Under the pieces are notes generated by a model that worked only from the letters and a program-made list of their open reading frames with translations, ran no database searches and was not told the origin of the DNA. A DNA stretch of 32,000 bases. Origin: Candidatus Syntropharchaeum caldarium (GTDB lineage Archaea > Halobacteriota > Syntropharchaeia > Syntropharchaeales > Syntropharchaeaceae). A program made the position numbers and the translations under genes. The stretch covers positions 60,001 through 92,000 of the forward strand of contig LYOS01000001.1 in the NCBI GenBank assembly GCA_001766815.1. The letters run 5' to 3'. This document shows, piece by piece, positions 7,201-29,037 of this stretch; positions within the stretch are counted from its first letter, which is position 1, and the number at the start of each line of letters is the position of its first letter.

Positions 7201-7406
7201 ACGGTATGTTCAAAGTAATAAGCATGGAGGAAAGTAGAGGTGACGGCGACGGTGATGGCGGGTTTACAGCGTTAGATGCGCTCTACGCACTTCAAATGGC
7301 TGTCGGAAAGATACCAGAAGACCTGGCTATGGATATGAATGGAGATGGGAGTGTAACATCGCTTGATGCCCAGAAAATTTTGAAAATCGCCGTAGGAGAA
7401 GAATAG
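4215..7406 (+). CDS. Membrane-anchored/secreted zinc metalloprotease-like protein with C-terminal cohesin + dockerin modules
   Basis: About 1063 aa.
- ATG 4215 overlaps the upstream stop (TGATG). GTG 4212 is an alternative start.
- N-terminal TM, then a 12-Cys region.
- CarboxypepD_reg-like stretch: YGGLRNAKVELKHNGNIYKDYTDDGGFFEFD.
- HEFGH zinc motif at nt 5718-5732, with a downstream EGEADF as a possible third ligand.
- Cohesin at nt 6838-7220 and dockerin at nt 7239-7397 (DGDGDGGFTALDAL, DMNGDGSVTSLDAQ). Confidence 0.85.
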   Translation: MNIVNFLKGRSQIFVFGVIVAVLLTSAVGVVSGGESGESQTTPTFDCQEYCNKMVEESGAETLKINGLPCQDWCKNRMDGCKERFEKEGVKGAKLVGLTDDAFHECKCVDEEGKRAYCFFPYVFWKEEDCPVCSALGIKLHDFMVTTMYSNTDHLCCVHSDKEAYERGKSSNWVSGIEYYLAIDATSTTGDAQKIFKKERDSYLKIPQERGPEILEGKDGDGDRFVYFTHDVNPTHSKVKYSTDWSIRGTILYKEIYVITVGVRYVKDKNDAQQRFYKLEECAKAVIDEKNKKRIFGRAFLDDKTRRYPYGGLRNAKVELKHNGNIYKDYTDDGGFFEFDAEVEMDDQITLTLYLEDEVNGKNYIKIFDKQSTNPSDPVYIEKTCRITDEDLRNGIDFIFDKNSITSGYRSGSSSSVLSGLVKEYIIFEDAVAFALEKLKTDIHNVSIHANNPNAKTECKSHSEENSACYDPTTRQIILGPNYVKLWPNQDSGFLSPYTEFHEFGHHIMFCHKEYLRDISYQVINHGGMMNPTTHDSLCEGEADFMALLMYEYKSYIISRFAEPSSVMGGKNFEVNYKAWLMEGNINREDIAVASLLWDLYDVKNPKHPERLDDKHFPSQNKVYDECNLSLQDMWSILKSSNCINVWNLYIVLTKTYPADKQKIDNLFIAHGFFRDKESGNGSYDGPVMYENVTMEGELERIYFCGEPYHDKNNNGVRDANEPFVDLGHGHKFPGGQVYTANEDVVGTASNYLMFGTPTKVGRQIGPIVKNSYILVKNEETQEFLVKVEFEPEYSYYNYEYMTSSPEGLLYISFPPPEYKTTVTITPISENYVAEKPLKIESEEYFDLISKSTDENHFLEHEFDLQPIKEAYVLGLTFESRSKSSGSTVQIPLTLRGIKEKIGNMDITLSYDPSVLDAKEVIKGSLTTKSLFDYNILDGTIKISLADEEGFSEDGSIAHLKFNVIGAEGSSSPLTIVAIAANKAEDYETLEVPTNDGMFKVISMEESRGDGDGDGGFTALDALYALQMAVGKIPEDLAMDMNGDGSVTSLDAQKILKIAVGEE

Positions 7407-7434
7407 AAAAGAAATGAAAATAGGAGGTGATAGA

Positions 7435-7986
7435 GTGAAAAAAATGTTGGTGTTGCTGGTTGGTTTGCTATGCTTGCTTTGCCTCGTATCTCTCACTTCG
7501 GCAGCGGGTTTGACTGTCAGCGTGAGTGATGAAACGGGTGCAAAAGGGGACATCGCAAAGGTGCCTATTATTCTTGAAGCCGCATCAGATGTAGGAAGTA
7601 TAGATATTGTTTTGAAGTATGATGGTCAAGTTTTGCGAGCTGTAGCTGTGGAGGCTGGTGAACTCGGTAAAAACGCGCTTATCGAAGCTAATACGGCGAG
7701 GGAAGGAGAAGTTATAATAGCGCTGGCAGATTCATCCGGAATAAATGGTGACGGCGCAGTTGCAACCATCTCCTTTGAGGTGATAGGCGATGTCGGCTCT
7801 ACGAGTCCTCTGACTCTGGAGACAGTTTCGGTAAACAACGTTGAGCTGGTTGAAGTAATCACAACCACAGAGAGCGGGACGTTTAGTGTTACTGAGGAGG
7901 GTGCACCAAAGTCCGGAGATGCGAGCACGGCGATAATGGCAATAACGGCGATAATCATCGCGTTATTCGTAATCAAGAGAAGGTAA
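7435..7986 (+). CDS. Small cohesin-domain protein with signal peptide and C-terminal TM anchor (scaffoldin/anchor-like)
   Basis: ORF 7414..7986. GGAGGTGA at 7424-7431 favours GTG 7435 (or ATG 7444) as the start. Signal peptide: LVLLVGLLCLLCLVSLTSA. Cohesin-like core: AKVPIILEAASDVGSIDIVLKYDGQVL...GDGAVATISFEVIG. The C-terminus ASTAIMAITAIIIALFVIKRR is a TM segment plus a basic tail, with no PEP or PGF motif. Confidence 0.75.
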   Translation: MKKMLVLLVGLLCLLCLVSLTSAAGLTVSVSDETGAKGDIAKVPIILEAASDVGSIDIVLKYDGQVLRAVAVEAGELGKNALIEANTAREGEVIIALADSSGINGDGAVATISFEVIGDVGSTSPLTLETVSVNNVELVEVITTTESGTFSVTEEGAPKSGDASTAIMAITAIIIALFVIKRR

Positions 7987-8005
7987 TGAGAGAGGAAGAA
8001 ATGAA

Positions 8006-8647
8006 ATGAAAAAAACAATTTTTATTTTATTTCTACTTTTTATCCTCGTAATAAGTCCAGCGAGTGCAGACCTTTTCAACGAAATGAATCAGAAGGTTCT
8101 GGTTTATAATCAGAATGTAGATAGAGTTCCAGGTGTTATAAAAAGCCTGCTCGGAAATGAGGAGATACATGGTATTATAGATTTAAACGACGGCAGTAAA
8201 TTGGAAGTAAAAGCAGTAACGAAGGAAGCAAGGGTTATCGAATTTGGGAAGGTAGGAACTGAGATAGCTCCCGGCAAAGGCGATTGCAATAAAGATGATG
8301 ATTTGACTGCTTTAGATGCATTGTGTGCTTTAAAAATGTCTGTTGGTAAAATGCAGACTCACGAGAGCATTGATGTGGATGAAGATGGCAAAGTTACCTC
8401 TTTGGATGCAAGGATAATACTTCAAGCTGTCGTTGGTTGGAGCCCCGAAGTAAATCCAACAATTGTAGTAAAAACAGATGAAGATACCATGCGTAGCATA
8501 ATGAACTCGCAAAAACCAGTTGATACATTCTTAGATGCTCTTGATAGTGGGGCTATTAAAATTGAAGCCGTTGGAGTGGTAAAAGGTATTATCCTTTCAA
8601 TAGGGAAGGTTGTGCTACAAATAGCAAGATCTCTGGGAATATTGTAA
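8006..8647 (+). CDS. Small secreted protein with an internal dockerin module
   Basis: 213 aa. Signal peptide: IFILFLLFILVISPASA. Dockerin at nt 8279-8445: DCNKDDDLTALDAL and DVDEDGKVTSLDAR. The flanking halves are homologous to the protein at 15349..15804. Confidence 0.8.
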   Translation: MKKTIFILFLLFILVISPASADLFNEMNQKVLVYNQNVDRVPGVIKSLLGNEEIHGIIDLNDGSKLEVKAVTKEARVIEFGKVGTEIAPGKGDCNKDDDLTALDALCALKMSVGKMQTHESIDVDEDGKVTSLDARIILQAVVGWSPEVNPTIVVKTDEDTMRSIMNSQKPVDTFLDALDSGAIKIEAVGVVKGIILSIGKVVLQIARSLGIL

Positions 8648-17809: not shown

Positions 17810-18220
17810 TCAGATCCTATCGAGTATCTCCCGTAGCTGGTCGATCTCAAGCTCCTGTCTGTGGCGCTCGTCCTCCCACAGTTTTCTGTAGAAGTAGAGA
17901 TATTCATAGAGTGCTGACAGGTCTCTGCAGAAGATGACTCTGTGGTTTTCTATGATCTGGGCTTTCATGTAGAGTGGTAGTTCTTCAAAGAGCCATATAT
18001 CGTATGGTTCACTGGTATCCAGATTTTTCCATGCATCTGCCAGGAGTCTGCTCATCTCATCTGGATCTTTTATCTTTGGTGCAACGATGGCGATGTCCAG
18101 ATCACTTCTGCACGTGGCTTCGCGCTTTGTTGTTGAGCCAAACTGGAGCAGCGCGAGGATTCGCTGATCTTTCTGTAGCCATAAGCCTGATGCTATCGAT
18201 CCAGCGCTCTCTTCAGCCAT
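17810..18220 (-). CDS. mntA: Minimal nucleotidyltransferase (MNT) antitoxin
   Basis: The motif FGSTTKREATCRSDLDIAIV matches the GS...(S)DxD NTase motif. It overlaps the upstream HEPN gene by 28 nt. Confidence 0.75.
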   Translation of the reverse strand: MAEESAGSIASGLWLQKDQRILALLQFGSTTKREATCRSDLDIAIVAPKIKDPDEMSRLLADAWKNLDTSEPYDIWLFEELPLYMKAQIIENHRVIFCRDLSALYEYLYFYRKLWEDERHRQELEIDQLREILDRI

Positions 18221-18630
18221 TCCGTCACCACATCGATGAAAGTTTCCGTGTGAGGCAGGAGTTTTTTGATCGAAACAAAGGCAATTTCAGGGTTTAAACC
18301 ATTGTATCCGTGTATCAATCTGTTTCTAAGCCCATTTGCCTCCTTCAGGGTTTCTTTAAGCTTTTTGTCGATCACACCATGCTCGTAGAGGATGTTGATA
18401 TTGGTGTAATCATCCTTCGGGAGTTTTCCCTCATCTTTTAAGATCATTGCAAGAATGTCTGTTGAAGCTTCCACGATCTCCTGCATCGCTTTGTAGATCG
18501 CAAGCCTTGTTTTCTTATCGATATTTTCTTTTGTATCGGTTTCACGCATCCATCTGTTTATATCTTCACTCCGCTCCTTTATGTGATCTATTTTATCGAT
18601 GTATCTTCGAACCCTCTCTTTCTCCATCAT
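18193..18630 (-). CDS. hepT: HEPN/DUF86 RNase toxin
   Basis: GLRNRLIHGYNG carries the Rx4H HEPN active-site motif near the C-terminus. 145 aa. Confidence 0.75.
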   Translation of the reverse strand: MMEKERVRRYIDKIDHIKERSEDINRWMRETDTKENIDKKTRLAIYKAMQEIVEASTDILAMILKDEGKLPKDDYTNINILYEHGVIDKKLKETLKEANGLRNRLIHGYNGLNPEIAFVSIKKLLPHTETFIDVVTEWLKRALDR

Positions 18631-19763: not shown

Positions 19764-19817
19764 TTAAACAATTGAGGGTGATGACAAAATGACATCTGTG
19801 CTTGCATAATCACAAGA

Positions 19818-19825
19818 TTTATATA
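19818..19825 (+). promoter_or_regulatory. Candidate TATA box for the PEP-CTERM/exosortase operon
   Basis: TTTATATA lies about 52 nt upstream of GTG 19877. It falls inside the over-extended ORF-track start at 19802. Confidence 0.4.
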
Positions 19826-19876
19826 GGGGTAATTAGAGAAATAATTAAATACTTAGAGGTAAGTAGGCGATATGGT

Positions 19877-20572
19877 GTGAAGATGATTATTAGGATGGTA
19901 CTGGTTGGAGTGCTTCTGATGATGGTGGTTACACCCGTAGTTGTGGGAGTTACTTCTACCGATACAGTGAACAAAGTAAAACCTGGTAATCACCAGCCAT
20001 ATATAATCCTGCTTATGAAACAGGGCGGTGGAGATTTCATTCGGCTTCTACCAGACAAATCATACACCGTTGTGCCTGATGTCCCACTCAGGTTCAAAGC
20101 AATATACGTGTGGAAGGTTGGCTTGCTCGATAACGAAAAGAGGCAGACCGTTTTAACAGAAGGCGAAGAGAAGGCAGTAATAAAAGCGATACAGAAGGGG
20201 ATAGAATCAAAGGATCAGATGTTAGGCTCATCTGTGTTCCCCAAGAGATGGAAAGTGAATATCACCGAGAATGATGGCACGGAAGTGGAATTAGGCTCTG
20301 GTTATGGCTGGGAACTGAAATGGAACCTTGTTGAAGTAAATGGCAATTTGTATCTGGTAGCCTGGACACCCCCAGGTGTGGTAGACTTGTATACTCCCTC
20401 ACAGGATAAGTCGCCATTTGATGTGGCTGCGATCTGGAATAAATGGTGTTGGGGATCATCAATTCTTACAATAGAAGGTATAGTTGTCGTACCAGAACCC
20501 ACCACTCTCGCTCTGACAGCCCTTGGCATGCTGGGCGTTCTTGGATTTGTCAGAAGGAGAAGGGAGGCGTAA
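19877..20572 (+). CDS. PEP-CTERM sorting-domain protein 1
   Basis: The start is placed by alignment of RBS + start with the paralog: AGTAGGCGATATGGTGTGAAGATG versus AGGAGGCGATATTGTATGAAGATG. Signal peptide: KMIIRMVLVGVLLMMVVTPVVVG. C-terminus: VPEPTTLALTALGMLGVLGFVRRRREA. Confidence 0.8.
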   Translation: MKMIIRMVLVGVLLMMVVTPVVVGVTSTDTVNKVKPGNHQPYIILLMKQGGGDFIRLLPDKSYTVVPDVPLRFKAIYVWKVGLLDNEKRQTVLTEGEEKAVIKAIQKGIESKDQMLGSSVFPKRWKVNITENDGTEVELGSGYGWELKWNLVEVNGNLYLVAWTPPGVVDLYTPSQDKSPFDVAAIWNKWCWGSSILTIEGIVVVPEPTTLALTALGMLGVLGFVRRRREA

Positions 20573-20639
20573 CACGTATGATCACAATGTTTACAACTGA
20601 TAATGTGAGAGATGAAGTAATAATAGGAGGCGATATTGT

Positions 20640-21107
20640 ATGAAGATGATTAGAATGGCACTGGTTGGAGTGCTTCTGATGATGCTGGTTATGCCGGCGG
20701 TGGCAACGGATATAACCATTTATATGGATATAGGAAATGGCTGGGAGGTTGCAGAGAACAGTCACCAATATCAAGTTGATGCAAACACAGAATGCCGGTT
20801 CAAGGCAAACTATTCCGGTTGGGGTAGTGGTACTATGTATGTGTTTAATGTGACAAATAGTAGCGCATGGATAGGTGGGGAAAGTGGTACCAGTAGCACT
20901 GACACATGGGAGACTGGAGTTGTAACTTATACAATCTCGCTTGATGAGACGGTCTTTGTGGAGGCAGCAGCGGCTAATTTTGCGAAAAAAAAGATTAGCG
21001 TTACCGCAAGTACAGTTACGGGCGTCCCAGAACCCACCACCCTCGCTCTGACAGCCCTTGGCATGCTGGGCGTTCTTGGATTTGTCAGAAGGAGAAGAGA
21101 GGAGTAG
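20640..21107 (+). CDS. PEP-CTERM sorting-domain protein 2
   Basis: Signal peptide: MKMIRMALVGVLLMMLVMPAVA. C-terminus: VPEPTTLALTALGMLGVLGFVRRRREE. Confidence 0.85.
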   Translation: MKMIRMALVGVLLMMLVMPAVATDITIYMDIGNGWEVAENSHQYQVDANTECRFKANYSGWGSGTMYVFNVTNSSAWIGGESGTSSTDTWETGVVTYTISLDETVFVEAAAANFAKKKISVTASTVTGVPEPTTLALTALGMLGVLGFVRRRREE

Positions 21108-21131
21108 ATTTATTGAGATCTTACTTCATCA

Positions 21132-21962
21132 ATGGACATACAAAAGAGTGACAATAAAATATGGCCTCTGGGGCTTATAATCTCCACGGTGGTGTTATAC
21201 TTTGGCTCATTCAAATGGCTCCTCACATCATGGCTCACCCTTGATGCTTACAGTCATGGATTTCTGATCCCGATCATATCCTTCTTTCTTATCTGGCAGA
21301 AGCGAGATATTTTATCTGGAGCTGATGATCAGAAAAGCCCGATGCTATTTATCCTTGGCCTTATAATCTACGTTGTGGGACAGTTTACGGGTGCGATCTT
21401 TCTCACCACCGTATCAATGATACCTTTTCTTCTCGGTCTCGTTCTCCTGTTTAAAGGTGCTCAGCAAATGCGTGTGCTTATATTTCCAGTCTGTTTTTTG
21501 ATATTTGCGATCCCCTTGCCAGACCTTGATGGGATAATGCTCACCCTCCAGGGTATATCAACCGTGCTTGCAACAGGCATCTCTCACCTTCTTGGGGTTG
21601 AATCAAGCCATGACGGCTGCCAGATCTTGATGAACGGGGCAATATTTGAGGTTGCACCTGCATGCAGCGGCTTTAATTCGATCGTATCACTCTTTACTGT
21701 GGTCACCCTCCTGGCATATCTCATCCCTGATCCACTCACAGATAAGGTTATTTTGTTAATAGCAACCCTTCCTCTTGCAATATTCACCAACGGATTGAGG
21801 ATTGCGATAACACTTCTTGTAGCGTCAAACTTCGGGGTTGAAGCAGGGATGAGATACTTCCATGACTGGGGTGGCATAACATTCTTTGTGATCGCACTTG
21901 TATCGATATTCATACTCCTGGAGGTGTTGAGATGGATAAGAAAGATCAGTACAAAGCCGTAG
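21132..21962 (+). CDS. Exosortase (bacterial-type exosortase/archaeosortase superfamily transpeptidase)
   Basis: 276 aa and polytopic. N-terminal exosortase signature: DAYSHGFLIPIISFFLIWQKR. Candidate catalytic Cys in VAPACSGFNS, Arg in TNGLRIAI, His in YFHDWGG. Confidence 0.8.
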   Translation: MDIQKSDNKIWPLGLIISTVVLYFGSFKWLLTSWLTLDAYSHGFLIPIISFFLIWQKRDILSGADDQKSPMLFILGLIIYVVGQFTGAIFLTTVSMIPFLLGLVLLFKGAQQMRVLIFPVCFLIFAIPLPDLDGIMLTLQGISTVLATGISHLLGVESSHDGCQILMNGAIFEVAPACSGFNSIVSLFTVVTLLAYLIPDPLTDKVILLIATLPLAIFTNGLRIAITLLVASNFGVEAGMRYFHDWGGITFFVIALVSIFILLEVLRWIRKISTKP

Positions 21963-22756
21963 CCACTGCACTGTTTTTGGTTATGATTATAACGATTCTC
22001 CTATCTCCACCAGAGGTCTTACTCCAGCGTGGGGTGATGGTTGATACCACGCCCACCTATACATCGGCTGAGAAATCATGGGTTAAGACACAGATGGAAC
22101 TTGGGAATAATGAGGCGATCGAGTCGCTGCCGATGAATATAAATGAGTGGAAGGGTTACAGGATCGATATCAAGGAGAGCGTGATCGAAGCACTCAAACC
22201 CGATATGATCATGGAGCGTGCATATTATGGAGCAGATAATCCAACCCCGGTATGGCTTCTCATCATACGGGCTGAGAACACCTCTGCGTTTCATGATCCA
22301 AAGGTCTGCTATCGAGGGGCTGGCTGGAGTGTTGTCAACGAGACGCAGATCGCAATTAGGCTGAATGGATCAAGATGGATTGCTGATGCATCTACCACCC
22401 GGAGCAGCGATGCTGAAATTGTGGTGAACAAGCTTTTACTTGAGAAGGAGGGCAGGTACAGGCTTATCATGTACTTCTACCTCAAGGAACTTATATTTGC
22501 AAGCTCACCCGGGAAGATCACGATCGTGAGAGCCGAGACAACGGTTGAGGATCTCGATGATGCCAGCAGGCAGCTTGAGAACTTCTTCAGTGAGATACTT
22601 CCATATCTGTTCATACCAGTTTCAGGCGGAGGAGATGTGGTGGCAGTGCTGCTATATCGAAATTATGGCGTAATCGGTGCTTTAATGATGTCATTATTGC
22701 TTCTCTTCCCACTTGTTTATCTCATCAGGCTGGTTATGCAAAGCAGAATTCGATAG
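21932..22756 (+). CDS. Exosortase-associated EpsI-family protein
   Basis: It overlaps the exosortase gene by 31 nt and has an N-terminal TM. EpsI-type string: LPMNINEWKGYRIDI...LKPDMIMERAYY...VWLLIIRAENTSAFHDPKVCYRGAGWSV. It also has an extra C-terminal TM. Confidence 0.7.
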   Translation: MDKKDQYKAVATALFLVMIITILLSPPEVLLQRGVMVDTTPTYTSAEKSWVKTQMELGNNEAIESLPMNINEWKGYRIDIKESVIEALKPDMIMERAYYGADNPTPVWLLIIRAENTSAFHDPKVCYRGAGWSVVNETQIAIRLNGSRWIADASTTRSSDAEIVVNKLLLEKEGRYRLIMYFYLKELIFASSPGKITIVRAETTVEDLDDASRQLENFFSEILPYLFIPVSGGGDVVAVLLYRNYGVIGALMMSLLLLFPLVYLIRLVMQSRIR

Positions 22757-22910
22757 AATGGAGTGCATCTGTAAATTTCTTTTTTATGATTTAAAATATT
22801 TTTAAGATATTTTTAAGCTTTAAAAGATATTTTATTTCTATATCAGTAAGATAATAATATATCATATTTCTTTTTTATAAAAAGTTATATTGTCCTGTAA
22901 ATGCATAAAG

Positions 22911-22918
22911 TTTATATA
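22911..22918 (+). promoter_or_regulatory. Candidate TATA box for the GT2 gene
   Basis: TTTATATA preceded by the purine-rich GCATAAAG, 52 nt upstream of ATG 22970. It sits within a 213-nt, very AT-rich spacer. Confidence 0.4.
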
Positions 22919-22969
22919 ATGTAACATCAAAATAAGGGGATATTGTAGCAAAAGTGGGAGTGTGAAGGT

Positions 22970-24001
22970 ATGGCTGGGATCACGGCATCGAAGGAACTGA
23001 CCAGGAAGAAAAACATTGAAAATATTACTGTTATAGAAGAGTTTAATGAAGAAGTATCTTCAGATGAGAAGTATGGTTCATCCTCTGCAATGAAGATACT
23101 TGCTGCAATCCCGTGTTACAATGAGGAGATTGCGATAGGGTCTGTCGTTCTTAAGGCTAAAAATTTTGTGGATACGATTATTGTCGTTGATGACGGTTCT
23201 TCAGATGATACGGCTTTGATTGCAAAGGAGGCAGGCGCAACAGTCATATCACACACGAAAAACGGCGGAAAGGGTGGGGCGATAAAGACCGCATTAAAAT
23301 ATGCATCTGAACATGAATTTGATGCACTTGTACTTCTTGATGGTGATGGACAACATAATCCGAGTGATATACCTTCACTTCTTGAACCACTAACAGAGAA
23401 TTCTGCCGACATGGTCATTGGATACAGAAGTTTGGGGCAGATGCCATTTTATAGAAGGATCGGAAGGATTGTACTTGATAAGGTCACAGGTGCAAAGAGT
23501 ATTGTTACAGATTCACAATGTGGGTTCAGGGTCCTGAACAGACGAACGATTGAAGCTCTGCTAAAGAAGATCAAGACAAATGGGTTCTCGATCGAGTCTG
23601 AGATGTTGATGAAAGCTCATGAGCTTGGACTGAGGATCGAGGAACGTGAGATCTTCTGCAAATACGGTGACTTTGATACCTCAACCGAGAATCCAGTGAA
23701 ACATGGGTTCGCTGTGCTTGGTTCCATCATTCAGATGATAGTAGAACGAAGACCATTGACATACATAGGAATTCCAGGATTGGGGCTCATTCTGATCGGT
23801 TTCTTCTTCGGATTGCAGCTTATGCAGCTCTATAACCAATCAGGCTATTTTTCCCTGCCTCTAACGATGCTTTCAGGATTTTTTCTCATTTTGGGTACAT
23901 TTGGAGTATTCATGGGAATATTGCTGAATGTGATATCGAGGTTGACTGAGCGAGATAAGAATATACTTGAAGACCTGCACCAGATTCTGAACAGGACCTG
24001 A
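22970..24001 (+). CDS. Family-2 glycosyltransferase (Dpm1/GtrB-like) with C-terminal TM helices
   Basis: Motifs AAIPCYNEE, VVDDGSSDDT and LDGDGQHNP, plus two C-terminal TM helices. An alternative start MKILAAIPCYNEE lies near 23090. Confidence 0.85.
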   Translation: MAGITASKELTRKKNIENITVIEEFNEEVSSDEKYGSSSAMKILAAIPCYNEEIAIGSVVLKAKNFVDTIIVVDDGSSDDTALIAKEAGATVISHTKNGGKGGAIKTALKYASEHEFDALVLLDGDGQHNPSDIPSLLEPLTENSADMVIGYRSLGQMPFYRRIGRIVLDKVTGAKSIVTDSQCGFRVLNRRTIEALLKKIKTNGFSIESEMLMKAHELGLRIEEREIFCKYGDFDTSTENPVKHGFAVLGSIIQMIVERRPLTYIGIPGLGLILIGFFFGLQLMQLYNQSGYFSLPLTMLSGFFLILGTFGVFMGILLNVISRLTERDKNILEDLHQILNRT

Positions 24002-24345
24002 GATAATAAAACCAAGTCCTGTTGTGAGGGTGTGTGGATTATACTACACCAGGTAGCATTACTCTTATGAGCTGGATCGGGTGTTTTTTTGAGCAACCTG
24101 GGCTCCCTGAGGCGGGGTATAATTTAGAGGTTGGATCGGAGAGGCATGGGGGGAAGACTGGCAGGAAGTGAGAAGATTTTTGGAAGAAAAAGAGCGTGAT
24201 GTGATTCCTGTAGAGGGAGATACAAATACGGTTTTAGGGTGTGCGTTCGCTGCTTCCAAACTGGGAATTGGGGGGTGGGCATGTGGAAGCGGGGCTGCGG
24301 AGCTACGACAGAAGTATGCCTGAGGAAGTCAATAGGGTTTTAAAC
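23991..24345 (+). pseudogene. wecB: UDP-N-acetylglucosamine 2-epimerase fragment F1 (about residues 8-118; frameshifts and stops)
   Basis: Read across three frames:
- TGPEIIKPSPVVRVC..YTR*HYSYELDRVFF*
- FFEQPGLPEAGYNLEVGSERHGGKTG
- RFLEEKERDVIPVEGDTNTVLGCAFAASKLGI
- GHVEAGLRSYDRSMPEEVNRVL
These match archaeal WecB/MnaA motifs (GTRPEIIK, HTxQHY, GDTNTVLAGAL, HVEAGLRS, MPEEINR). The 5' end is overlapped by the GT2 stop. The 3' two-thirds of the gene is absent. Confidence 0.8.
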
Positions 24346-24379
24346 GTAAAAGTAAAAAAGCTAAGCAGGGAGACACGGA

Positions 24380-24979
24380 ATGGAACTGAAATATGAGCAT
24401 GGGAAGATAATAATCGAGAATAAAGTCATTACTACTTTGGATAGATTTGTCTTGGATTTCACGAAATTGCTTGAGGAGTATGTGGATTACGTGATTGTAA
24501 GCGGGTATGTTGTGATTCTTTTTGGAAGGGCACGTGGCACTGAGGATATTGATATACTCCTGAGAAAAATGGATAAATCCTTATTTGGTTCTTTTTACCA
24601 GAGATTAGGCGACGAGGGGTATTATTTTTTGAATCCAGAAGATGAAAATGGATTATATGAAATGTTGGAAGATGGACTAAGAGTGAGAGTTGCAAAGGAG
24701 GATATGATAATACCAAATATTGAACTGAAGTTCGCGAGGGATGACTTTGATAAATATGCGATTGATAAGAAACAGGGGGTTATTATTGGCGAACAGCATC
24801 TATTTATCTCTCCAATCGAATTACAGATACCCTACAAGCTGTATTTGGGTAGCGACAAGGATGTAGAAGATGCGGTATATCTCTGGGAAATCTTTAAGGA
24901 AAAGATAGACAAAGCTCTGATGAGAACGTTCATGCGAGAACTGAAGGTAACCGGTGATGATTATGGAATTGAAGTTTGA
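24380..24979 (+). CDS. Nucleotidyltransferase-fold protein (DUF2204/AbiEii-like by impression)
   Basis: 199 aa. VSGYVVILFGRARGTEDIDILL resembles the G..R.T.DID NTase motif. Confidence 0.5.
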   Translation: MELKYEHGKIIIENKVITTLDRFVLDFTKLLEEYVDYVIVSGYVVILFGRARGTEDIDILLRKMDKSLFGSFYQRLGDEGYYFLNPEDENGLYEMLEDGLRVRVAKEDMIIPNIELKFARDDFDKYAIDKKQGVIIGEQHLFISPIELQIPYKLYLGSDKDVEDAVYLWEIFKEKIDKALMRTFMRELKVTGDDYGIEV

Positions 24980-25175
24980 AAGAGAAGAAAATTTGAAAGA
25001 GAGGCTGAAATTCATCCATCGTTATGCTAAATGGGTTAAAGATACACCAAATGAAGTGTGGAGTAGACAACAGGCTGAATTGATCGATAGCTTTATGCTG
25101 AATGCCAGGAATTTCAATATCTCCAGAAAGAAATACCTCGAGATGAAAAGCGTAACAGGTGACCGTGATGCCTAA
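24954..25175 (+). CDS. Small partner protein (73 aa), unknown function
   Basis: Overlaps the upstream NTase-like gene by 26 nt, giving a two-gene module. No motif recognised. Confidence 0.4.
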   Translation: MMIMELKFEREENLKERLKFIHRYAKWVKDTPNEVWSRQQAELIDSFMLNARNFNISRKKYLEMKSVTGDRDA

Positions 25176-25182
25176 ACGGGTT

Positions 25183-25260
25183 GAGCATTATTCTTATGAG
25201 ATGGATCGGGTGTTCTTTGAGCGACAGGGCATTTCTGGTGTGTTGCAGGGGAGAGAATAA
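25183..25260 (+). pseudogene. wecB: wecB 5' fragment F2
   Basis: Translates to EHYSYEMDRVFFE and then diverges. It shares the about 38-nt core AGCATTATTCTTATGAGATGGATCGGGTGTTCTTTGAG (25184-25221) with F1 and F5. Confidence 0.65.
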
Positions 25261-25285
25261 ATAGGTTAACCTTCAAAGGACGTGT

Positions 25286-25702
25286 ATGAACATGGATCTA
25301 TATAGGGGTCGTAAAATGCCTGCGAAAATAGAGAAGGCGATTGAAAGGATCAAAAACACAGAAGGGTTTGAAAAGGTAAAGTTCATCATCCTGTATGGGT
25401 CATCTGCAGCAGGGCAGATGAGGAAAGATTCAGATATAGACCTCTGCATATACTATGATGGGAGTATCGAAGAGTCTTCAAGGTTCAGGTTTGGAGTGCT
25501 CTCTGAGGTTTTTGATGACACCTACGACATCCAGATCTTTCAGCTTCTTCCGCTTTATGTGAGGAGGGAAGTCCTGAAGGGGGAGGTGCTATACTGCAAA
25601 GATAAGCAGTTTTTATACGAGGTAGCCCTCGATACAATAAGGAATTTTGAGGCGTTTAAGCACAGATTTTATGATTACATCGGAGAAAGAGCGATCACAT
25701 GA
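25286..25702 (+). CDS. mntA: Minimal nucleotidyltransferase (MNT) antitoxin
   Basis: FIILYGSSAAGQMRKDSDIDLCIYY is the NTase motif. An alternative start is ATG 25316 (MPAKIEK). Confidence 0.75.
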   Translation: MNMDLYRGRKMPAKIEKAIERIKNTEGFEKVKFIILYGSSAAGQMRKDSDIDLCIYYDGSIEESSRFRFGVLSEVFDDTYDIQIFQLLPLYVRREVLKGEVLYCKDKQFLYEVALDTIRNFEAFKHRFYDYIGERAIT

Positions 25703-26040
25703 TTTGAGGAGTTCTCGGGTCTTGGCCTGATTAAAGATGGCATATACAAGAGGATGGAATTTTGTATTGAAAACGTCTTTGATATCTGTGCAATCATCAA
25801 CACAGACCTTGAGCTTGGAGTTCCGCGTGACGATGAGGACATCATAGTGAATCTGGTAAAGAACGAGATACTTAGTGAGGAGACGATAGAGAAGCTGAAA
25901 GGCATGAGGGTTTTAGAAACATAGTCGTTCACAGGTATGGTGCGATAGATGATAAACTTACTTTTGAGATATTGAAAGAGAATTCAGGGGATTTTTATGC
26001 ATTCATAAAGCGGATTGAGGAGTTTATGGGGGCTTATTGA
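25703..26040 (+). pseudogene. hepT: HEPN/DUF86 toxin gene, disabled (no start codon, -1 frameshift before the active site)
   Basis: Frame A reads FEEFSGLGLIKDGIYKRMEFCIENVFDICAIINTDL...EKLKGMRVLET*. Frame B reads EGFRNIVVHRYGAIDDKLTFEILKENSGDFYAFIKRIEEFMGAY*. A G-run at 25908-25910 is one G short of restoring GMRGFRNIVVH (the Rx4H motif). The frame opens directly after the MNT stop, with no ATG. Confidence 0.7.
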
Positions 26041-26059
26041 GGTGAAAAGGGGGAGTGAG

Positions 26060-26173
26060 GGGAGAGGCATAGATCACTTTATCTTGCATACAGGGCAACA
26101 TTACTGCTGCAACATAGATGGAGTAATTTTTGACGAAGATAGAACACCGTGTTTGGGAGGAGAAGGTTTATAA
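26060..26173 (+). pseudogene. wecB: wecB 5' fragment F3 (most diverged)
   Basis: Translates to GRGIDHFILHTGQHYCCNIDGVIFDEDRTPCLGGEGL*. The ILHTGQHY core matches the WecB HTxQHY motif. Confidence 0.55.
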
Positions 26174-26209
26174 AAGTGCCTTGAATATTTAAATAAAGGA
26201 GAGCTATAA

Positions 26210-26425
26210 ATGCAGACGGTCAAATCCTCGGTTGCAAGAGGCATAATAACAAGACTCACACAGATCCAGGAGGAGATCGGAGATCTTGTTGAGGAGCTTG
26301 AGATCCTGAGTGATGAGGAGCTTATGAGAGATATTGAGGAGAGTGAGAAGGACTTTGAGGAGGGGAGGTATTACACGTTTGAAGAGATAATGGACTTACA
26401 TAAGAAGCTGGGCAAAAATGAGTAG
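26210..26425 (+). CDS. relB: Archaeal RelB-type antitoxin
   Basis: 71 aa. The pattern SDEELMRDIEESEKDFEEGRYYTFEEIMDL resembles archaeal RelB (aRelB) C-terminal regions. It overlaps the RelE gene by 8 nt. Confidence 0.6.
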   Translation: MQTVKSSVARGIITRLTQIQEEIGDLVEELEILSDEELMRDIEESEKDFEEGRYYTFEEIMDLHKKLGKNE

Positions 26426-26672
26426 AAAGCCAGAAATTATCTTCTCTCCAAAGTTTAAAGAGATATTCGAAAAGCTGGATTTTGAAAACCGTGAAAGGAT
26501 AATTAAGCATCTGAAACAGATAGAGCAGAACCCAGAGATCGGAAAACCCCTCAGATACTCGCTTAAGGGATTCAGATCGATAAGAATCGGAAAGTACAGA
26601 CTTATCTATGCGATCGAGGAGGATGTGATAAGGGTGTATGCATTTGAGCACAGGAAGGGGGTTTATAAGTAA
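26418..26672 (+). CDS. relE: RelE/ParE-family toxin
   Basis: 84 aa. FRSIRIGKYRLIYAIEEDVIRVYAFEHRKGVY is the typical RelE C-terminal pattern. Confidence 0.8.
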   Translation: MSRKPEIIFSPKFKEIFEKLDFENRERIIKHLKQIEQNPEIGKPLRYSLKGFRSIRIGKYRLIYAIEEDVIRVYAFEHRKGVYK

Positions 26673-26782
26673 TGGGTGAGCTTTGCACTATCCTCGGCAC
26701 ACGACCACTTGAGATAATCAAGATGTCACCTGTGATAGGGCGTGTGAGAGCGAGTGGTGATATAGCAGTTGGCATGGAATAA
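26672..26782 (+). pseudogene. wecB: wecB 5' fragment F4 (residues 1-about 36)
   Basis: Translates to MGELCTILGTRPLEIIKMSPVIGRVRASGDIAVGME*. GTRPEIIK-SPVI is the WecB N-terminal signature. Its ATG overlaps the RelE stop (TAATG). Confidence 0.65.
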
Positions 26783-26800
26783 ATATTCATTGGAGGGAAG

Positions 26801-27184
26801 ATGCGAAAAGAAGTTAAAGAATGGTGGAAACAGGCATTGAAAGACCTGGATAGTGCTGAAAAAAACCTGAATATCGGGGAATATTATTTAACTGCTTTTC
26901 TATGTCAGCAGAGCGTTGAAAAGTCACTTAAAGCCCTGTATATACATAAATTAAAAGAATCGCCAGGTCCGACTCACTCTTTAATCTTTCTTGGCAAGGA
27001 AGTTGGCATTCCAGAAGAGTATCACAGCACGTTGAGACGATTATCTCCAGACTTCGTGATCACAAGATATCCAGATGCTGCTCACACTGTCCCCTATGAG
27101 TTATATGACGAAGAGATCGCAAAGGAGCGATTGGAGCGGTCAATGAAGGTGATAGAATGGATAAGAAAAGAACTGATGAAATAG
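26801..27184 (+). CDS. HEPN-domain protein (classical HEPN family)
   Basis: 127 aa. Strings EKNLNIGEYYLTAFLCQQSVEKSLKAL and ITRYPDAAH (the Rx5H motif). Confidence 0.75.
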   Translation: MRKEVKEWWKQALKDLDSAEKNLNIGEYYLTAFLCQQSVEKSLKALYIHKLKESPGPTHSLIFLGKEVGIPEEYHSTLRRLSPDFVITRYPDAAHTVPYELYDEEIAKERLERSMKVIEWIRKELMK

Positions 27185-27477
27185 ATCAATTTTTAAAGCA
27201 GGTTGAGAGGGAATTTAAACCTGAGCATATCATTCTCTTTGGAAGCAGGGCTGGAGAGGATTATTTGGAGCAGAGTGATTACGATATTATCGTTGTCAGT
27301 GAGATGTTTGAAGGTATCCATTTTTTAAACAGAATGACGATGCTCTATGAATTATGGGACTATGATTTCGACCTGGACATACTGGCATACACACCCGATG
27401 AATTCGAAGAGAAGAAAAAAGAGATCGGGATCGTGAGTGAGGCTGTGAAAGAGGGAATTGAACTGGCTAAAACATGA
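27157..27477 (+). CDS. Nucleotidyltransferase (NTP_transf_2) partner of the HEPN protein
   Basis: IILFGSRAGEDYLEQSDYDIIVVSE is the NTase motif. It overlaps the HEPN gene by 28 nt. Confidence 0.75.
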   Translation: MDKKRTDEIDQFLKQVEREFKPEHIILFGSRAGEDYLEQSDYDIIVVSEMFEGIHFLNRMTMLYELWDYDFDLDILAYTPDEFEEKKKEIGIVSEAVKEGIELAKT

Positions 27478-27513
27478 GTGGTTCATAATGCGTGAAAAGA
27501 CCTGCACACCCCC

Positions 27514-27665
27514 GGAACAAGACCAGAGTTTATCAAGATATCGCCTGTATCAGGGTGTGTGAGGGCTCGGGGCTGGATTACCTTGTTCTGCATACAGGTC
27601 AGCATTATTCTTATGAGATGGACAGGGTGTTCTTTCAGGAGATTGAAATGCCTGATGTGAAGTAT
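27514..27665 (+). pseudogene. wecB: wecB 5' fragment F5 (residues about 5-78, one frameshift)
   Basis: GTRPEFIKISPV in one frame, then IRVCEGSGLDYLVLHTGQHYSYEMDRVFFQEIEMPDVKY in the frame of ORF 27492..27707. Homology stops after DVKY. Confidence 0.7.
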
Positions 27666-27711
27666 AAACCACGAGAGAAGATTTATAATTTATACAATGC
27701 AAAATAAATAA

Positions 27712-27869
27712 ATGAGCATGATGAGGACTCACAGTATTGGCGAGTATCAAAAGGATGATATTGAAAGAAAGATAACTGCTGTTTTAAAGAGAAGAAATGA
27801 AATCGAGTTTGCATATCTTCACGGCTCATTTTTGGAAGGTGACTTTCGAGATATCGATCTTGCGATTTA
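27712..27869 (+). pseudogene. 5' fragment of an MNT-type nucleotidyltransferase gene abutting IS630
   Basis: The fragment reads ...EFAYLHGSFLEGDFRDIDLAIY. The NTase motif is present but the ORF runs into the IS left end at 27870. The body of the gene is missing. Confidence 0.55.
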
Positions 27870-27915
27870 TAGTATTAGACAAAACATTTTTAACTAACAA
27901 GTACAATTTACCTGT

Positions 27916-28398
27916 ATGGGACGAAGACCCGAAAAAGAAGTTGTTAAGTGGCTGACCCTGGAAGAGCTGAACGAAGAGATTCGAAGTAGAAAAGTATGCG
28001 CAGAAGTCCTCAGAAAACTTTTCTTCATCAAAGAACTCTACAAAGGAGCAGCTGTTCCAAAAGCAGCTAAAGAGGTGGGGGTAAGCAAAGTCATAGGCTA
28101 TGTGTGGCTTGAGAACTGGAACGAGAAAGGATTGGAAGGACTTAAACCGAATTATGGTGGAGGTAGACCTTCAGAACTGACTGAAGAGCAGAAAGAAGAA
28201 CTCAAGAAAATACTTGAGAAGAGAGATGACTGGACCACAAGAGAAGTAAGAGAGCTCATCAATGAGGAGTTTGGTGTTGAATACAGCATAAGGCATCTCA
28301 GCAGAATACTGAAATCATTTGGGATGAAGTACTCAAAACCCTATCAGCAAGATTACAGAAGACCTGAAAATGCTGAAGAAGAGCTTAAAAAAACTTGA
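27916..28398 (+). CDS. IS630 transposase, N-terminal HTH part (orfA)
   Basis: 160 aa with a helix-turn-helix/winged-helix region (AAKEVGVSKVIGYVWLENWNEKGLEGL). It ends in the A7 run at 28387-28393. Confidence 0.8.
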   Translation: MGRRPEKEVVKWLTLEELNEEIRSRKVCAEVLRKLFFIKELYKGAAVPKAAKEVGVSKVIGYVWLENWNEKGLEGLKPNYGGGRPSELTEEQKEELKKILEKRDDWTTREVRELINEEFGVEYSIRHLSRILKSFGMKYSKPYQQDYRRPENAEEELKKT

Positions 28399-28930
28399 TG
28401 AGCTTGATACTGATCTGAAAGAATGCATTATAGGATTTCTGGATGAGACTTCACCTCAACTCACCTCAAATACCCAACGCTTGTGGTCATTCAATAAACC
28501 AGCTGTTAAGAAGAACACCACAAAGATGAGAGCAAATACCTTCGGTTTCTATGCAATAAATGGGGAGAGTGTTGTAGATTTTAAAGAAAATTCAAAGAAG
28601 GAATCTGTATGTGAGTTTCTGGAGAGGATAAGAGAAAGAAATCCAGAGAAGACCATAGTAATCATTCTTGATAACTTCAGATCACACTGGGCTAAGAAAA
28701 CAAGGAGAAAAGCAAGAAAGCTGAACATAATTCTTATCTTCCTACCGCCTTACTCACCTGATCTGAATCCAATTGAGCAGATCTGGAGAATCATAAAGAG
28801 AGTTCTTTCACCACTCTTCATCAAAACATTGGATGAGCTCAAAAAAGTCATCTCGAAGAGTTTTTATGAGCTAACACAAAGGATCAGCTTTGCAGAAAAG
28901 TGGATTAAGAGGTTCTTGAATATTGGTTAA
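28370..28930 (+). CDS. IS630 transposase, DDE catalytic part (orfB)
   Basis: Candidate catalytic residues in FLDETS, VIILDNFRSH and YSPDLNPIEQIW (DDE/D triad spacing typical of IS630). It is in the +1 frame relative to orfA. Confidence 0.8.
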   Translation: MLKKSLKKLDELDTDLKECIIGFLDETSPQLTSNTQRLWSFNKPAVKKNTTKMRANTFGFYAINGESVVDFKENSKKESVCEFLERIRERNPEKTIVIILDNFRSHWAKKTRRKARKLNIILIFLPPYSPDLNPIEQIWRIIKRVLSPLFIKTLDELKKVISKSFYELTQRISFAEKWIKRFLNIG

Positions 28931-29037
28931 GTTTGTTATGTTAGATACTATAAACCAAGAATACACCCAATAACCGCCCCTGCAAGGGTGCGTTTTGTGA
29001 GCCAGTTTACTATATCACTCATTTTTTCAAACATTTT

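Follow-up and report, generated by a model that had tools for sequence, protein, structure and literature searches.

A toxin–antitoxin islet with stacked partial wecB copies in Candidatus Syntropharchaeum caldarium and a putative recombination hotspot at the GT2–wecB junction of archaea

We analyzed a stretch of 32,000 nucleotides from the genome of Candidatus Syntropharchaeum caldarium (assembly GCA_001766815.1, contig LYOS01000001.1, positions 60,001–92,000 of the forward strand), which is referred to below as the window and to which coordinates refer unless another contig is named. Between positions 23961 and 27897, the window contains an array in which partial copies of the 5' end of wecB, the gene of UDP-GlcNAc 2-epimerase, are interleaved with small gene modules, mostly of toxin–antitoxin (TA) families. 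We interpret this array as an eroded TA islet formed by homology-anchored, imprecise recombination at wecB, and give this interpretation a probability of roughly 0.6. Comparison with other archaea supports the view that, across several orders, the junction of wecB with the upstream gene of a family 2 glycosyltransferase (GT2) is a putative hotspot of recombination and insertion.

A tblastn search of the window with the full-length WecB of Methanosarcina (locus L038) as a query revealed exactly five wecB pieces, F1–F5, all on the + strand (Table 1). No match to WecB beyond residue 135 was found at E < 1 anywhere in the window. An earlier interpretation made from the letters alone (hereafter, the sequence-only reading) had reported both the five partial 5' copies and the absence of the 3' two-thirds of the gene, and both observations were confirmed. 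Full-length WecB (about 350–370 aa, with both Rossmann-like halves; Pfam Epimerase_2) was not found in the window, where only residues 1–135 are represented, in five broken pieces.

Fragment F1 is read in three frames with several frameshifts and stops. Its homology to wecB probably starts at about 23961–23975, inside the C-terminus of GT2, the last approximately 12 codons of which run through the decayed wecB start. F2 contains little beyond a conserved core, and its tblastn match (25183–25221, residues 37–49) is non-significant as protein alone (E = 0.12). The ATG of F4 shares bases with the stop codon of the preceding RelE gene (TAATG); the homology of F4 extends to about nt 80 of wecB, and the open reading frame (ORF) there has 36 codons. 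F5 carries its own ATG, 11 nt past the stop of the preceding nucleotidyltransferase (NTase) gene, and its ORF matches UDP-GlcNAc 2-epimerase of M. jannaschii (4NEQ, E = 2.4e-8). The core, whose recurrence had also been noticed from the letters alone, is present in F1 (24055–24092), F2 (25184–25221), and F5 (27601–27638): a 35-nt pattern of it occurs three times in the window and was not encountered in 100 shuffles. A degenerate fourth copy is located within F3 (26097–26134).

Table 1. Features of the GT2–wecB region in the window. F, wecB 5' fragment; modules 1–5, gene modules between the fragments (cas1–cas5); NTase, nucleotidyltransferase; MNT, minimal nucleotidyltransferase.
Feature	Position	Strand	Content and basis
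GT2	22970–24001	+	AglJ/DPM1-like family 2 glycosyltransferase; Pfam Glycos_transf_2, E = 1.3e-23
F1	23961–24345	+	wecB pseudogene fragment at native position; tblastn 23991–24342 = residues 9–135
Module 1, gene A	24380–24979	+	199 aa; Pol-beta-type NTase-like motif read by eye
Module 1, gene B	24954–25175	+	73-aa DUF8150 protein, overlaps gene A; Pfam, identical Logan contig
F2	25180–25240	+	wecB residues 37 to ~55
Module 2, antitoxin	25286–25702	+	MntA-like nucleotidyltransferase; Pfam Polbeta, E = 1.2e-15; NCBIfam MntA_antitoxin
Module 2, toxin remnant	25699–26040	+	HepT; Pfam HepT-like
F3	26048–26173	+	wecB residues 21 to ~57; tblastn 26048–26149 = residues 21–54
Module 3, putative antitoxin	26210–26425	+	71 aa, RelB position; overlaps RelE by 8 nt
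Module 3, toxin	26418–26672	+	RelE/ParE family; Pfam ParE_toxin, E = 2.5e-12; NCBIfam RelE_StbE
F4	26672–26782	+	wecB start, residues 1 to ~27; tblastn
Module 4, HEPN	26801–27184	+	HEPN-domain protein; Pfam HEPN, E = 3e-25
Module 4, MNT	27157–27477	+	minimal nucleotidyltransferase; Pfam NTP_transf_2 + Polbeta
F5	27489–27668	+	wecB residues 1–59, one frameshift; tblastn 27489/27514–27665
Module 5	27712–27867	+	MNT-type nucleotidyltransferase, N-terminal ~50 codons, cut by the insertion sequence; Pfam Polbeta profile positions 2–42 of 93
IS630	27866–28954	+	IS630-family insertion sequence, ends the array; HTH_32 + DDE_3 domains

The modules between the fragments were assigned to families with Pfam and NCBIfam profiles. 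Four of the five belong to known TA families, module 1 being the exception. MntA/HepT, RelE, HEPN/NTase, and the NTase stub are packed in 2.6 kb, with the terminal IS630 as the sole mobile element. Modules 2, 3, and 4 consist of adjacent small gene pairs, and by their families and this layout they are predicted TA modules. Module 1 has a similar layout, which suggests a predicted TA module as well, but its 199-aa gene lacks a family: no match was found in Pfam (also at E ≤ 10), NCBIfam, or PDB sequences. Its UniRef name, 'Nucleotidyltransferase', together with the motif read by eye, suggests an NTase-like protein. The 71-aa ORF in the RelB position of module 3 had no Pfam or NCBIfam family match. 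The sequence-only reading had placed one two-gene module in every interval between fragments; this was supported by Pfam and NCBIfam for modules 2 and 4, for RelE, and for the NTase stub of module 5, whereas the proteins it named 'NTase-like' and 'RelB' did not match any family. The best NCBIfam match of the upstream GT2 was AglJ, under the family cutoff.

The array ends with an IS630 element bounded by imperfect terminal inverted repeats of 32 nt (27866–27897 and 28923–28954). The sequence past its right end is unrelated and does not represent the remainder of the NTase of module 5, which indicates a putative deletion adjoining IS630. The transposase is encoded by two overlapping ORFs (27916–28398 and 28370–28930), as expected for programmed frameshift; at least one more copy of the transposase ORF is present on the same 492-kb contig (at least 95% identity by cluster membership).

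The array was reproduced in independent assemblies. Logan contig L001 (SRR3669912) is identical to window positions 21068–27628, and five contigs from other samples (L087–L090 and L097), including one of a Syntropharchaeales metagenome-assembled genome (MAG), contain F1, module 1, F2, module 2, F3, and module 3 in the same order at about 97% identity. The array is therefore real and predates the split of these strains. An assembly chimera or a collapsed repeat in the MAG, which the sequence-only reading had named as a possible refutation, might be suspected from the facts that L001 stops within the F5 core and that a contig of a relative, L096, stops beside the region (ending at its edge, it gives no view of the DNA downstream of the array). 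This explanation is scarcely conceivable, given that the identical independent contig spans F1 to F5, that the five variant contigs match from F1 to module 3, and that the common repeats, being imperfect and about 38 nt long, are too short to mislead an assembler.

The variants also differ from the window in an instructive way. HepT of L087 is intact (144 aa; NCBIfam HepT_toxin), whereas blastn against L087 showed that HepT of the window is broken by a 92-nt deletion at 25702/25703. F3 of the variant is about 71 nt longer (residues ~3–54), the window copy having lost a segment between 18-nt repeats. In L087 and L088, synteny ends at the RelE stop or F4 nt 9 and is followed by a 5'-truncated gene of a family 4 glycosyltransferase (GT4). 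Thus, cassette content differs among close relatives, and both fragments and toxins are eroding.

The fragments differ considerably from one another. Nucleotide identity between fragment pairs was 61–93%, a somewhat wider range than the divergence of 10–30% given in the sequence-only reading. Most pairs (61–81%) are as distant as wecB genes from different orders. The best identity of each fragment to any of about 80 archaeal wecB genes was 70–77% (blastn). Differences from intact wecB at codon positions 1/2/3 numbered 22/16/60 for F1, 12/6/26 for F5, and 10/5/22 for F3; the third-position excess was significant in all three (binomial p ≤ 0.001 versus 1/3). As the differences fall mostly at third codon positions, the fragments appear to have diverged as working genes.

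For comparison, we used 80 wecB loci obtained from a scan with one genome per GTDB species, along with a few metagenome contigs (all designated by L numbers). GT2 is located less than 100 bp upstream of wecB in about 25 of the 80 genomes, a layout like that of GT2 and F1 in the window; GT2–wecB is thus a conserved gene pair. The junction is unoccupied in most genomes, and different TA families were found in it in L009, L025, L033, and L066. Altogether, intact wecB is directly preceded by differing TA modules in six further archaeal loci, which represent five genomes. Locus L025 (Methanosarcinales) encodes a small ORF and PIN_2; L009 (Thermoplasmata), an MNT with 61% identity to the MNT of the window and a HepT remnant; L033 (Geoglobus), AF2212-like and PemK/MazF proteins; L058 (Geoglobus, with no GT2 on the contig), DUF2281 and then UPF0175 with a PIN-like ORF; and L066 (Methanothrix), AF2212-like and PIN proteins. 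In L070 (Bathyarchaeia), DUF5678 and PIN-domain ORFs are located just upstream of GT2–wecB; their families were taken from pooled Pfam scan matches and assigned to the locus via the ORF sequences. Arrays of at least two units were present in the window, L033, and L058, and in L008 a wecB fragment (residues 4–92) precedes GT2–wecB.

The density of TA genes was estimated from non-overlapped small ORFs (55–165 aa) of the 80 loci by a Pfam scan with any family; a seed-based phmmer count was dropped as circular in favor of this unbiased scan. Within 2.5 kb upstream of wecB, 10 of 117 ORFs (182 kb) belonged to TA families: three PIN and one each of PemK, AF2212-like, UPF0175, MNT, DUF5678, DUF2281, and DUF2283. 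The rest of the flanks yielded 435 ORFs; in a random sample of 294 of these, which represents about 627 kb, about six ORFs were of TA families, two of them abutting wecB 3' fragments. This corresponds to an approximately 5-fold enrichment upstream of wecB (Poisson p = 1.5e-5) in a modest sample whose 80 loci were chosen via wecB. The sequence-only reading had offered two causes. One of them, a hotspot of recombination in the 5' part of wecB where TA modules accumulate, is supported by the different TA modules that other archaea carry at this junction, accompanied in L033, L058, and L066 by a partial wecB 5' duplicate, and by the breakpoint in Geoglobus described below.

Another cargo may recur at the same spot. 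Homologous cysteine-rich proteins of 115–130 aa (CPHxSC...VWLP, HPxCxxCG) with no Pfam match are encoded in L009 (5345–5737), L022 (984–1343), and L013 (6460–6807). In L009 and L022, the genes are located between GT2 and wecB; in L013, where no GT2 was detected, the ORF is followed by wecB within 2.5 kb.

In three of the occupied loci, the insert is flanked by direct repeats of wecB: 132 nt of its 5' end at 85% identity in L033, 135 nt at 78.5% in L058, and, in L066, 713 nt at 93%, taking in the 3' part of GT2. Intact wecB follows the insert in each case, and the repeat copies are distinct alleles; the left copies contain no frameshifts. Third codon positions account for 14 of 22, 20 of 29, and 30 of 40 differences between the copies in L033, L058, and L066, respectively, which is above the 45% for neutral decay of one copy in L058 (p = 0.008) and L066 (p = 1e-4). 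With the differences mostly at third positions, the copies would have diverged as functional alleles before joining, which argues that one copy of each pair was imported and not duplicated in place. The replacement 5' end suggested by the sequence-only reading is partly supported: these three loci have intact wecB past the insert and synonymous-biased copies, but intact wecB is missing from the window.

A clear breakpoint of recombination inside wecB was found in Geoglobus. L033 and L058 belong to one MAG, both contigs end inside wecB, and they carry different TA arrays. Their wecB sequences differ by 18.3% up to nt 361 (66/361) and by 2.7% from nt 362 (7/262; Fisher p = 1.6e-10). We read L033 and L058 as two alleles of one locus; under this reading, the upstream TA islet and the 5' part of wecB would have been swapped en bloc, with the crossover inside wecB. 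The Geoglobus mosaic, so read, shows exchange at this locus, while the synonymous-biased repeats show that copies were probably imported.

The position of the breakpoints was compared with a conservation profile of 77 wecB genes (mean pairwise identity in 30-nt windows). The most conserved window, nt 103–132, encodes TGQHYSYEMD and coincides with the core (0.81 versus 0.60 gene-wide); the second, nt 19–48, encodes LGTRPEIIKM; further peaks are found at nt 273–302 and nt 369–398. Fragments end in wecB at nt ~74, 80, 137, 165, ~176, 276, and 405. Ends lie shortly past the conserved peaks: at ~74–80 for F4 and L066, at 137–176 for L033, L058, F2, F3, and F5, and at 405 for F1. Because the fragment ends trail the conservation peaks and the Geoglobus breakpoint is located at nt ~362, the conserved patches fit the role of homology anchors between diverged lineages. 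As to the shared boundaries that the sequence-only reading had hoped to define by aligning the fragments, five ends do cluster just past the core, which may reflect a site or the tendency of local alignments of copies with 70–80% identity to stop there anyway; the ends as a whole range from nt 74 to 405.

Alternatively, slippage or unequal exchange might have duplicated the wecB 5' end in tandem in situ; the copies would then have decayed neutrally, and TA modules would have landed independently in the dead copies. The single orientation of all fragments, the 92.7% identity of variant-form F3 to F4 (nt 16–71), and a 303-nt duplicate of the 3' part of wecB in L069, at 98.7% identity, speak for this explanation. 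It is nevertheless highly improbable as the origin of the array: most fragments are as far apart as wecB genes of different orders, the third-position bias of L058 and L066 exceeds that of neutral decay, and the left copies of L033, L058, and L066 are free of frameshifts.

The same TA modules were found elsewhere apart from wecB. Two JGI contigs (L094 and L095) contain module 4 (HEPN and NTase; nucleotide identity 88.5%) upstream of pyruvate kinase. The homology is confined tightly to the ORFs, beginning with the ATG of HEPN and ending slightly ahead of the stop codon of NTase (window 26800–27466), and neither a wecB nor a pyruvate kinase fragment is present beside them. HEPN of module 4 also occurs at 90% nucleotide identity beside a DDE_Tnp_1 transposase in Ca. 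Argoarchaeum ethanivorans (L091, 4320–5963), which points to a probable recent exchange of TA genes between these alkane-oxidising archaea. A metagenome scan with an MNT alignment retrieved 11 loci, with wecB pieces only in the same-species contig; in the other ten MNT/HepT loci, homology stops at the HepT stop, and no wecB piece is present. Travel of the wecB arm together with the module was thus ruled out by the module 4 homologues of L091–L095 and the ten MNT/HepT relatives. Because these modules occur without wecB pieces, the fragments appear to belong to the target locus and not to the modules.

The window itself contains an intact pair of MNT (Polbeta) and HepT genes (17810–18630, − strand) between genes of a NosD/beta-helix protein and an Rce1-like protease, and no flanking duplications were found around it. 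The notion that TA insertion always duplicates the end of a neighboring gene was rejected on a small sample of three control loci (L082, window 17810–18630, and L094), none of which has a flanking duplication.

These observations bear on a recombinase-independent cassette model, in which circles consisting of a TA module and a wecB 5' arm are excised between repeats and re-inserted by host homologous recombination, regenerating the gene. In favor of the model, the repeat units extend from the start codon of wecB to a point shortly past the most conserved patch, arrays of at least two units were found in three loci, and the repeat copies are foreign alleles. We consider the model quite unlikely, since relatives of the TA modules with 75–89% nucleotide identity in other genomes carry no wecB arm, the order of modules is unchanged in the 97% variant with no sign of shuffling, and the fragments are decaying through frameshifts and deletions. 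It is very unlikely that the first ~150–180 nt of wecB are a working homing arm by which circles re-insert into distant archaeal wecB genes via the two conserved patches. The fragments are probably scars rather than functional recombination sites.

Serial site-specific integration, the other cause offered by the sequence-only reading, would involve small integrative elements (plasmids, proviruses, or mobilisable islands) whose att site is located in the 5' end of wecB and which supply a replacement 5' end and later erode to a TA module and a fragment. Their expected product, a displaced 5' fragment, an insert, and a restored gene, is indeed seen in L033, L058, and L066 (PMC4482086); several fragments end shortly past the same core, at nt 137–176; and, in bacteria, TA islets have been proposed to be what is left of eroded mobile elements (PMC13617665). 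However, when every large ORF of the 32-kb window was compared with Pfam, no recombinase except the DDE transposase of IS630 was revealed, and we failed to find a tyrosine or serine recombinase among the large ORFs beside the wecB fragments in L002, L047, L066, and L069; the sequence-only reading had likewise seen none and had suggested searching nearby. The inserts of L033 and L058 hold just small TA ORFs. The end points differ over nt 74–405, the repeats are 72–93% identical with no exclusive perfect core, and TA modules elsewhere have no att-like flank. An IMG/VR scan with the wecB N-terminal query detected no wecB 5' piece in viral contigs, and a viral or plasmid vector was discarded on the same ground. 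Site-specific integration was thus not borne out, and we regard it as unlikely.

The comparison with an integron made in the sequence-only reading did not hold either. Single-stranded DNA folds of the five inter-cassette segments gave no attC-like hairpins (z-scores from −1.51 to +1.09), and short-range inverted repeats were absent from these segments. An integron cassette array was ruled out because neither an integrase nor attC-like hairpins were found and because the modules occur elsewhere, ORF-tight and without wecB repeats.

According to the preferred reading, homology-anchored recombination, a TA islet would have built up just upstream of wecB, where this gene adjoins that of the AglJ-like GT2. 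The first ~150 nt of wecB hold its two most conserved stretches (LGTRPEIIKM and TGQHYSYEMD), which would serve as anchors allowing DNA of a foreign lineage, with whatever sits upstream of its wecB, to recombine in. Clean double crossovers would swap the upstream islet together with the 5' part of wecB. Imprecise events, combining one homologous joint in wecB with one illegitimate joint, or inserting a circularised piece by a single crossover, would leave the displaced wecB 5' end as a partial copy, and their repetition would stack modules. F1, abutting GT2, would be the remnant of the resident gene, and F2–F5 those of different wecB alleles. Addictive TA modules may persist while the surrounding DNA decays, as suggested by the frameshifts of F1 and F5 and by the 92-nt and 71-nt deletions in HepT and F3. 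An IS630-associated deletion may have removed the distal end in S. caldarium, including any intact wecB; in the variant, the distal end may have been lost through a separate deletion that reaches from F4 nt 10 into the GT4 gene. The duplications may have arisen when a circularised fragment was inserted by a single crossover, when the genome copies of a polyploid cell underwent unequal exchange, or when break repair copied a donor; we infer the order of events and their exact molecular route.

Several points weigh against this reading. No donor lineage was found, the best fragment identity being 70–77% among the wecB loci compared (blastn). The route creating the duplications is deduced, with several candidates. 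The window contains no intact wecB, so the restoration of the gene by insertion rests on other genomes. Homology tracts start exactly at the start codon in five cases, which random imprecise recombination does not predict and which needs an assumption of selection. The likeness of variant-form F3 and F4, which extends over 55 nt, fits local duplication better than import. The apparent clustering of ends past the conserved patches may in part reflect where local alignments stop, and the enrichment of TA genes was estimated on just 80 loci picked via wecB.

Breakpoints within wecB are not restricted to TA islets. Truncated wecB 5' remnants without TA genes were found at the borders of differing glycan gene sets in Methanosarcina (L108) and Aenigmarchaeota (L110). 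Intact wecB of Methanotrichaceae is followed by 3' fragments of the gene; genes of a ParE toxin and of a DUF2281 protein are interspersed among these fragments in L069, and in L031 one such fragment precedes a UPF0175 protein. A DUF433/PIN pair follows wecB in L002; the gene was split there by the gene caller (195 + 91 aa), but tblastn aligns residues 1–347 in one piece. A 189-aa truncated WecB product is encoded within a glycan operon in L003–L006, and a pair of neighboring Epimerase_2 ORFs in L111, of 163 and 164 aa, is interpreted as a frameshifted wecB. Around wecB and its fragments in L031, there are dense short dispersed repeats (30–200 nt, 70–100% identity), which may resemble miniature inverted-repeat transposable elements. 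An acylphosphatase-domain protein of about 200 aa is encoded inside the wecB-flanked inserts of two Methanotrichaceae, L066 (8523–9101, with a weak coiled-coil-like C-terminal match) and L069 (5355–5963).

Among known systems, the locus works like the TA hotspot islets of bacteria, resembles dusA-type islands in layout only, and lacks what defines an integron. Bacterial TA systems, as described for Photorhabdus, cluster in small high-turnover spots and erode quickly, and they have been proposed to spread through homologous recombination in the core genes that flank them (PMC13617665). As in those islets, unrelated TA modules are present in a small interval without mobility genes, the cargo of the interval differs by genome, and erosion by toxin pseudogenes and deletions is frequent; recombination at flanking core genes, a proposal there, is backed here by the Geoglobus mosaic. 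Unlike the Photorhabdus islets, the present ones are archaeal and recur in Syntropharchaeales, Methanosarcinales, Methanotrichales, Archaeoglobales, and Thermoplasmata; they are flanked by the end of one specific gene, and the partial copies of this end that remain between modules record the events.

Islands targeting dusA restore the 5' end of the gene and depend on a dedicated integrase (PMC4482086). In L033, L058, and L066, though not in the window, a 5' fragment, an insert, and an intact target gene are arranged in the same way; the array of the window likewise has tandem direct partial copies, and tandem accretion of islands at tRNA genes likewise leaves several direct-oriented partial target copies. 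In contrast to dusA-type islands, no integrase was found, and the fragment ends, although five of them cluster past the core, vary over nt 74–405 rather than clearly marking a fixed crossover core. Each insert is a single TA operon of 0.6–1 kb, and the repeats are 72–93% identical over 100–700 nt instead of sharing a short identical core. Archaeal integrons also carry TA cassettes, but with IntI and attC (PMC9668308). A one-directional, TA-rich array of small cassettes with a recurring separator sequence is common to the window, integrons, and clusters of attC sites lacking integron-integrases (CALIN); here, however, IntI is lacking, the separator is wecB coding DNA without hairpin potential, and the cassettes occur elsewhere repeat-free.

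Variable glycan clusters (O-antigen, capsule, N-glycosylation) are exchanged by recombination in conserved flanking genes. The present locus is similar in that wecB and the AglJ-like GT2 edge glycosylation genes, the breakpoint lies within a conserved gene, and truncated wecB remnants mark swapped borders in L108 and L110; it differs in that the cargo consists of TA modules and not of sugar genes, with flank remnants five deep. No relevant literature linking TA modules with wecB in archaea was found. What is new here is a hotspot at one gene end that extends across archaeal orders, together with stacked flank remnants recording the events.

Upstream of GT2, the secreted proteins encoded at 19802–20572 and 20640–21107 end in the same PEP-CTERM-like tail (VPEPTTLALTALGMLGVLGFVRRRRE), and their genes directly precede those of exosortase/archaeosortase EpsH (21132–21962) and EpsI (21932–22756). 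The region 19802–22756 is thus a predicted sorting system beside glycosylation genes. Four consecutive proteins with cohesin and/or dockerin domains, unusual for an archaeon, are encoded at 2041–8647.

The movement of chromosomal TA modules is an unsettled matter, as they usually occur in genomes without a recombinase, repeats, or any trace of arrival; to our knowledge, almost nothing is known about it in archaea. In the locus analyzed here, the arrivals left traces in the form of stacked partial copies of a neighboring housekeeping gene. The finding also provides a rule that can be checked genome-wide, namely that the most nucleotide-conserved patches of conserved genes are anchors of recombination across lineages. 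If the homing-arm interpretation were true, the system would be an integron without an integrase, exploiting a housekeeping gene. The GT2–wecB junction is a defined and comparable hotspot at which the gain and erosion of TA modules, together with the exchange of surface glycosylation genes, may be reconstructed and tested.

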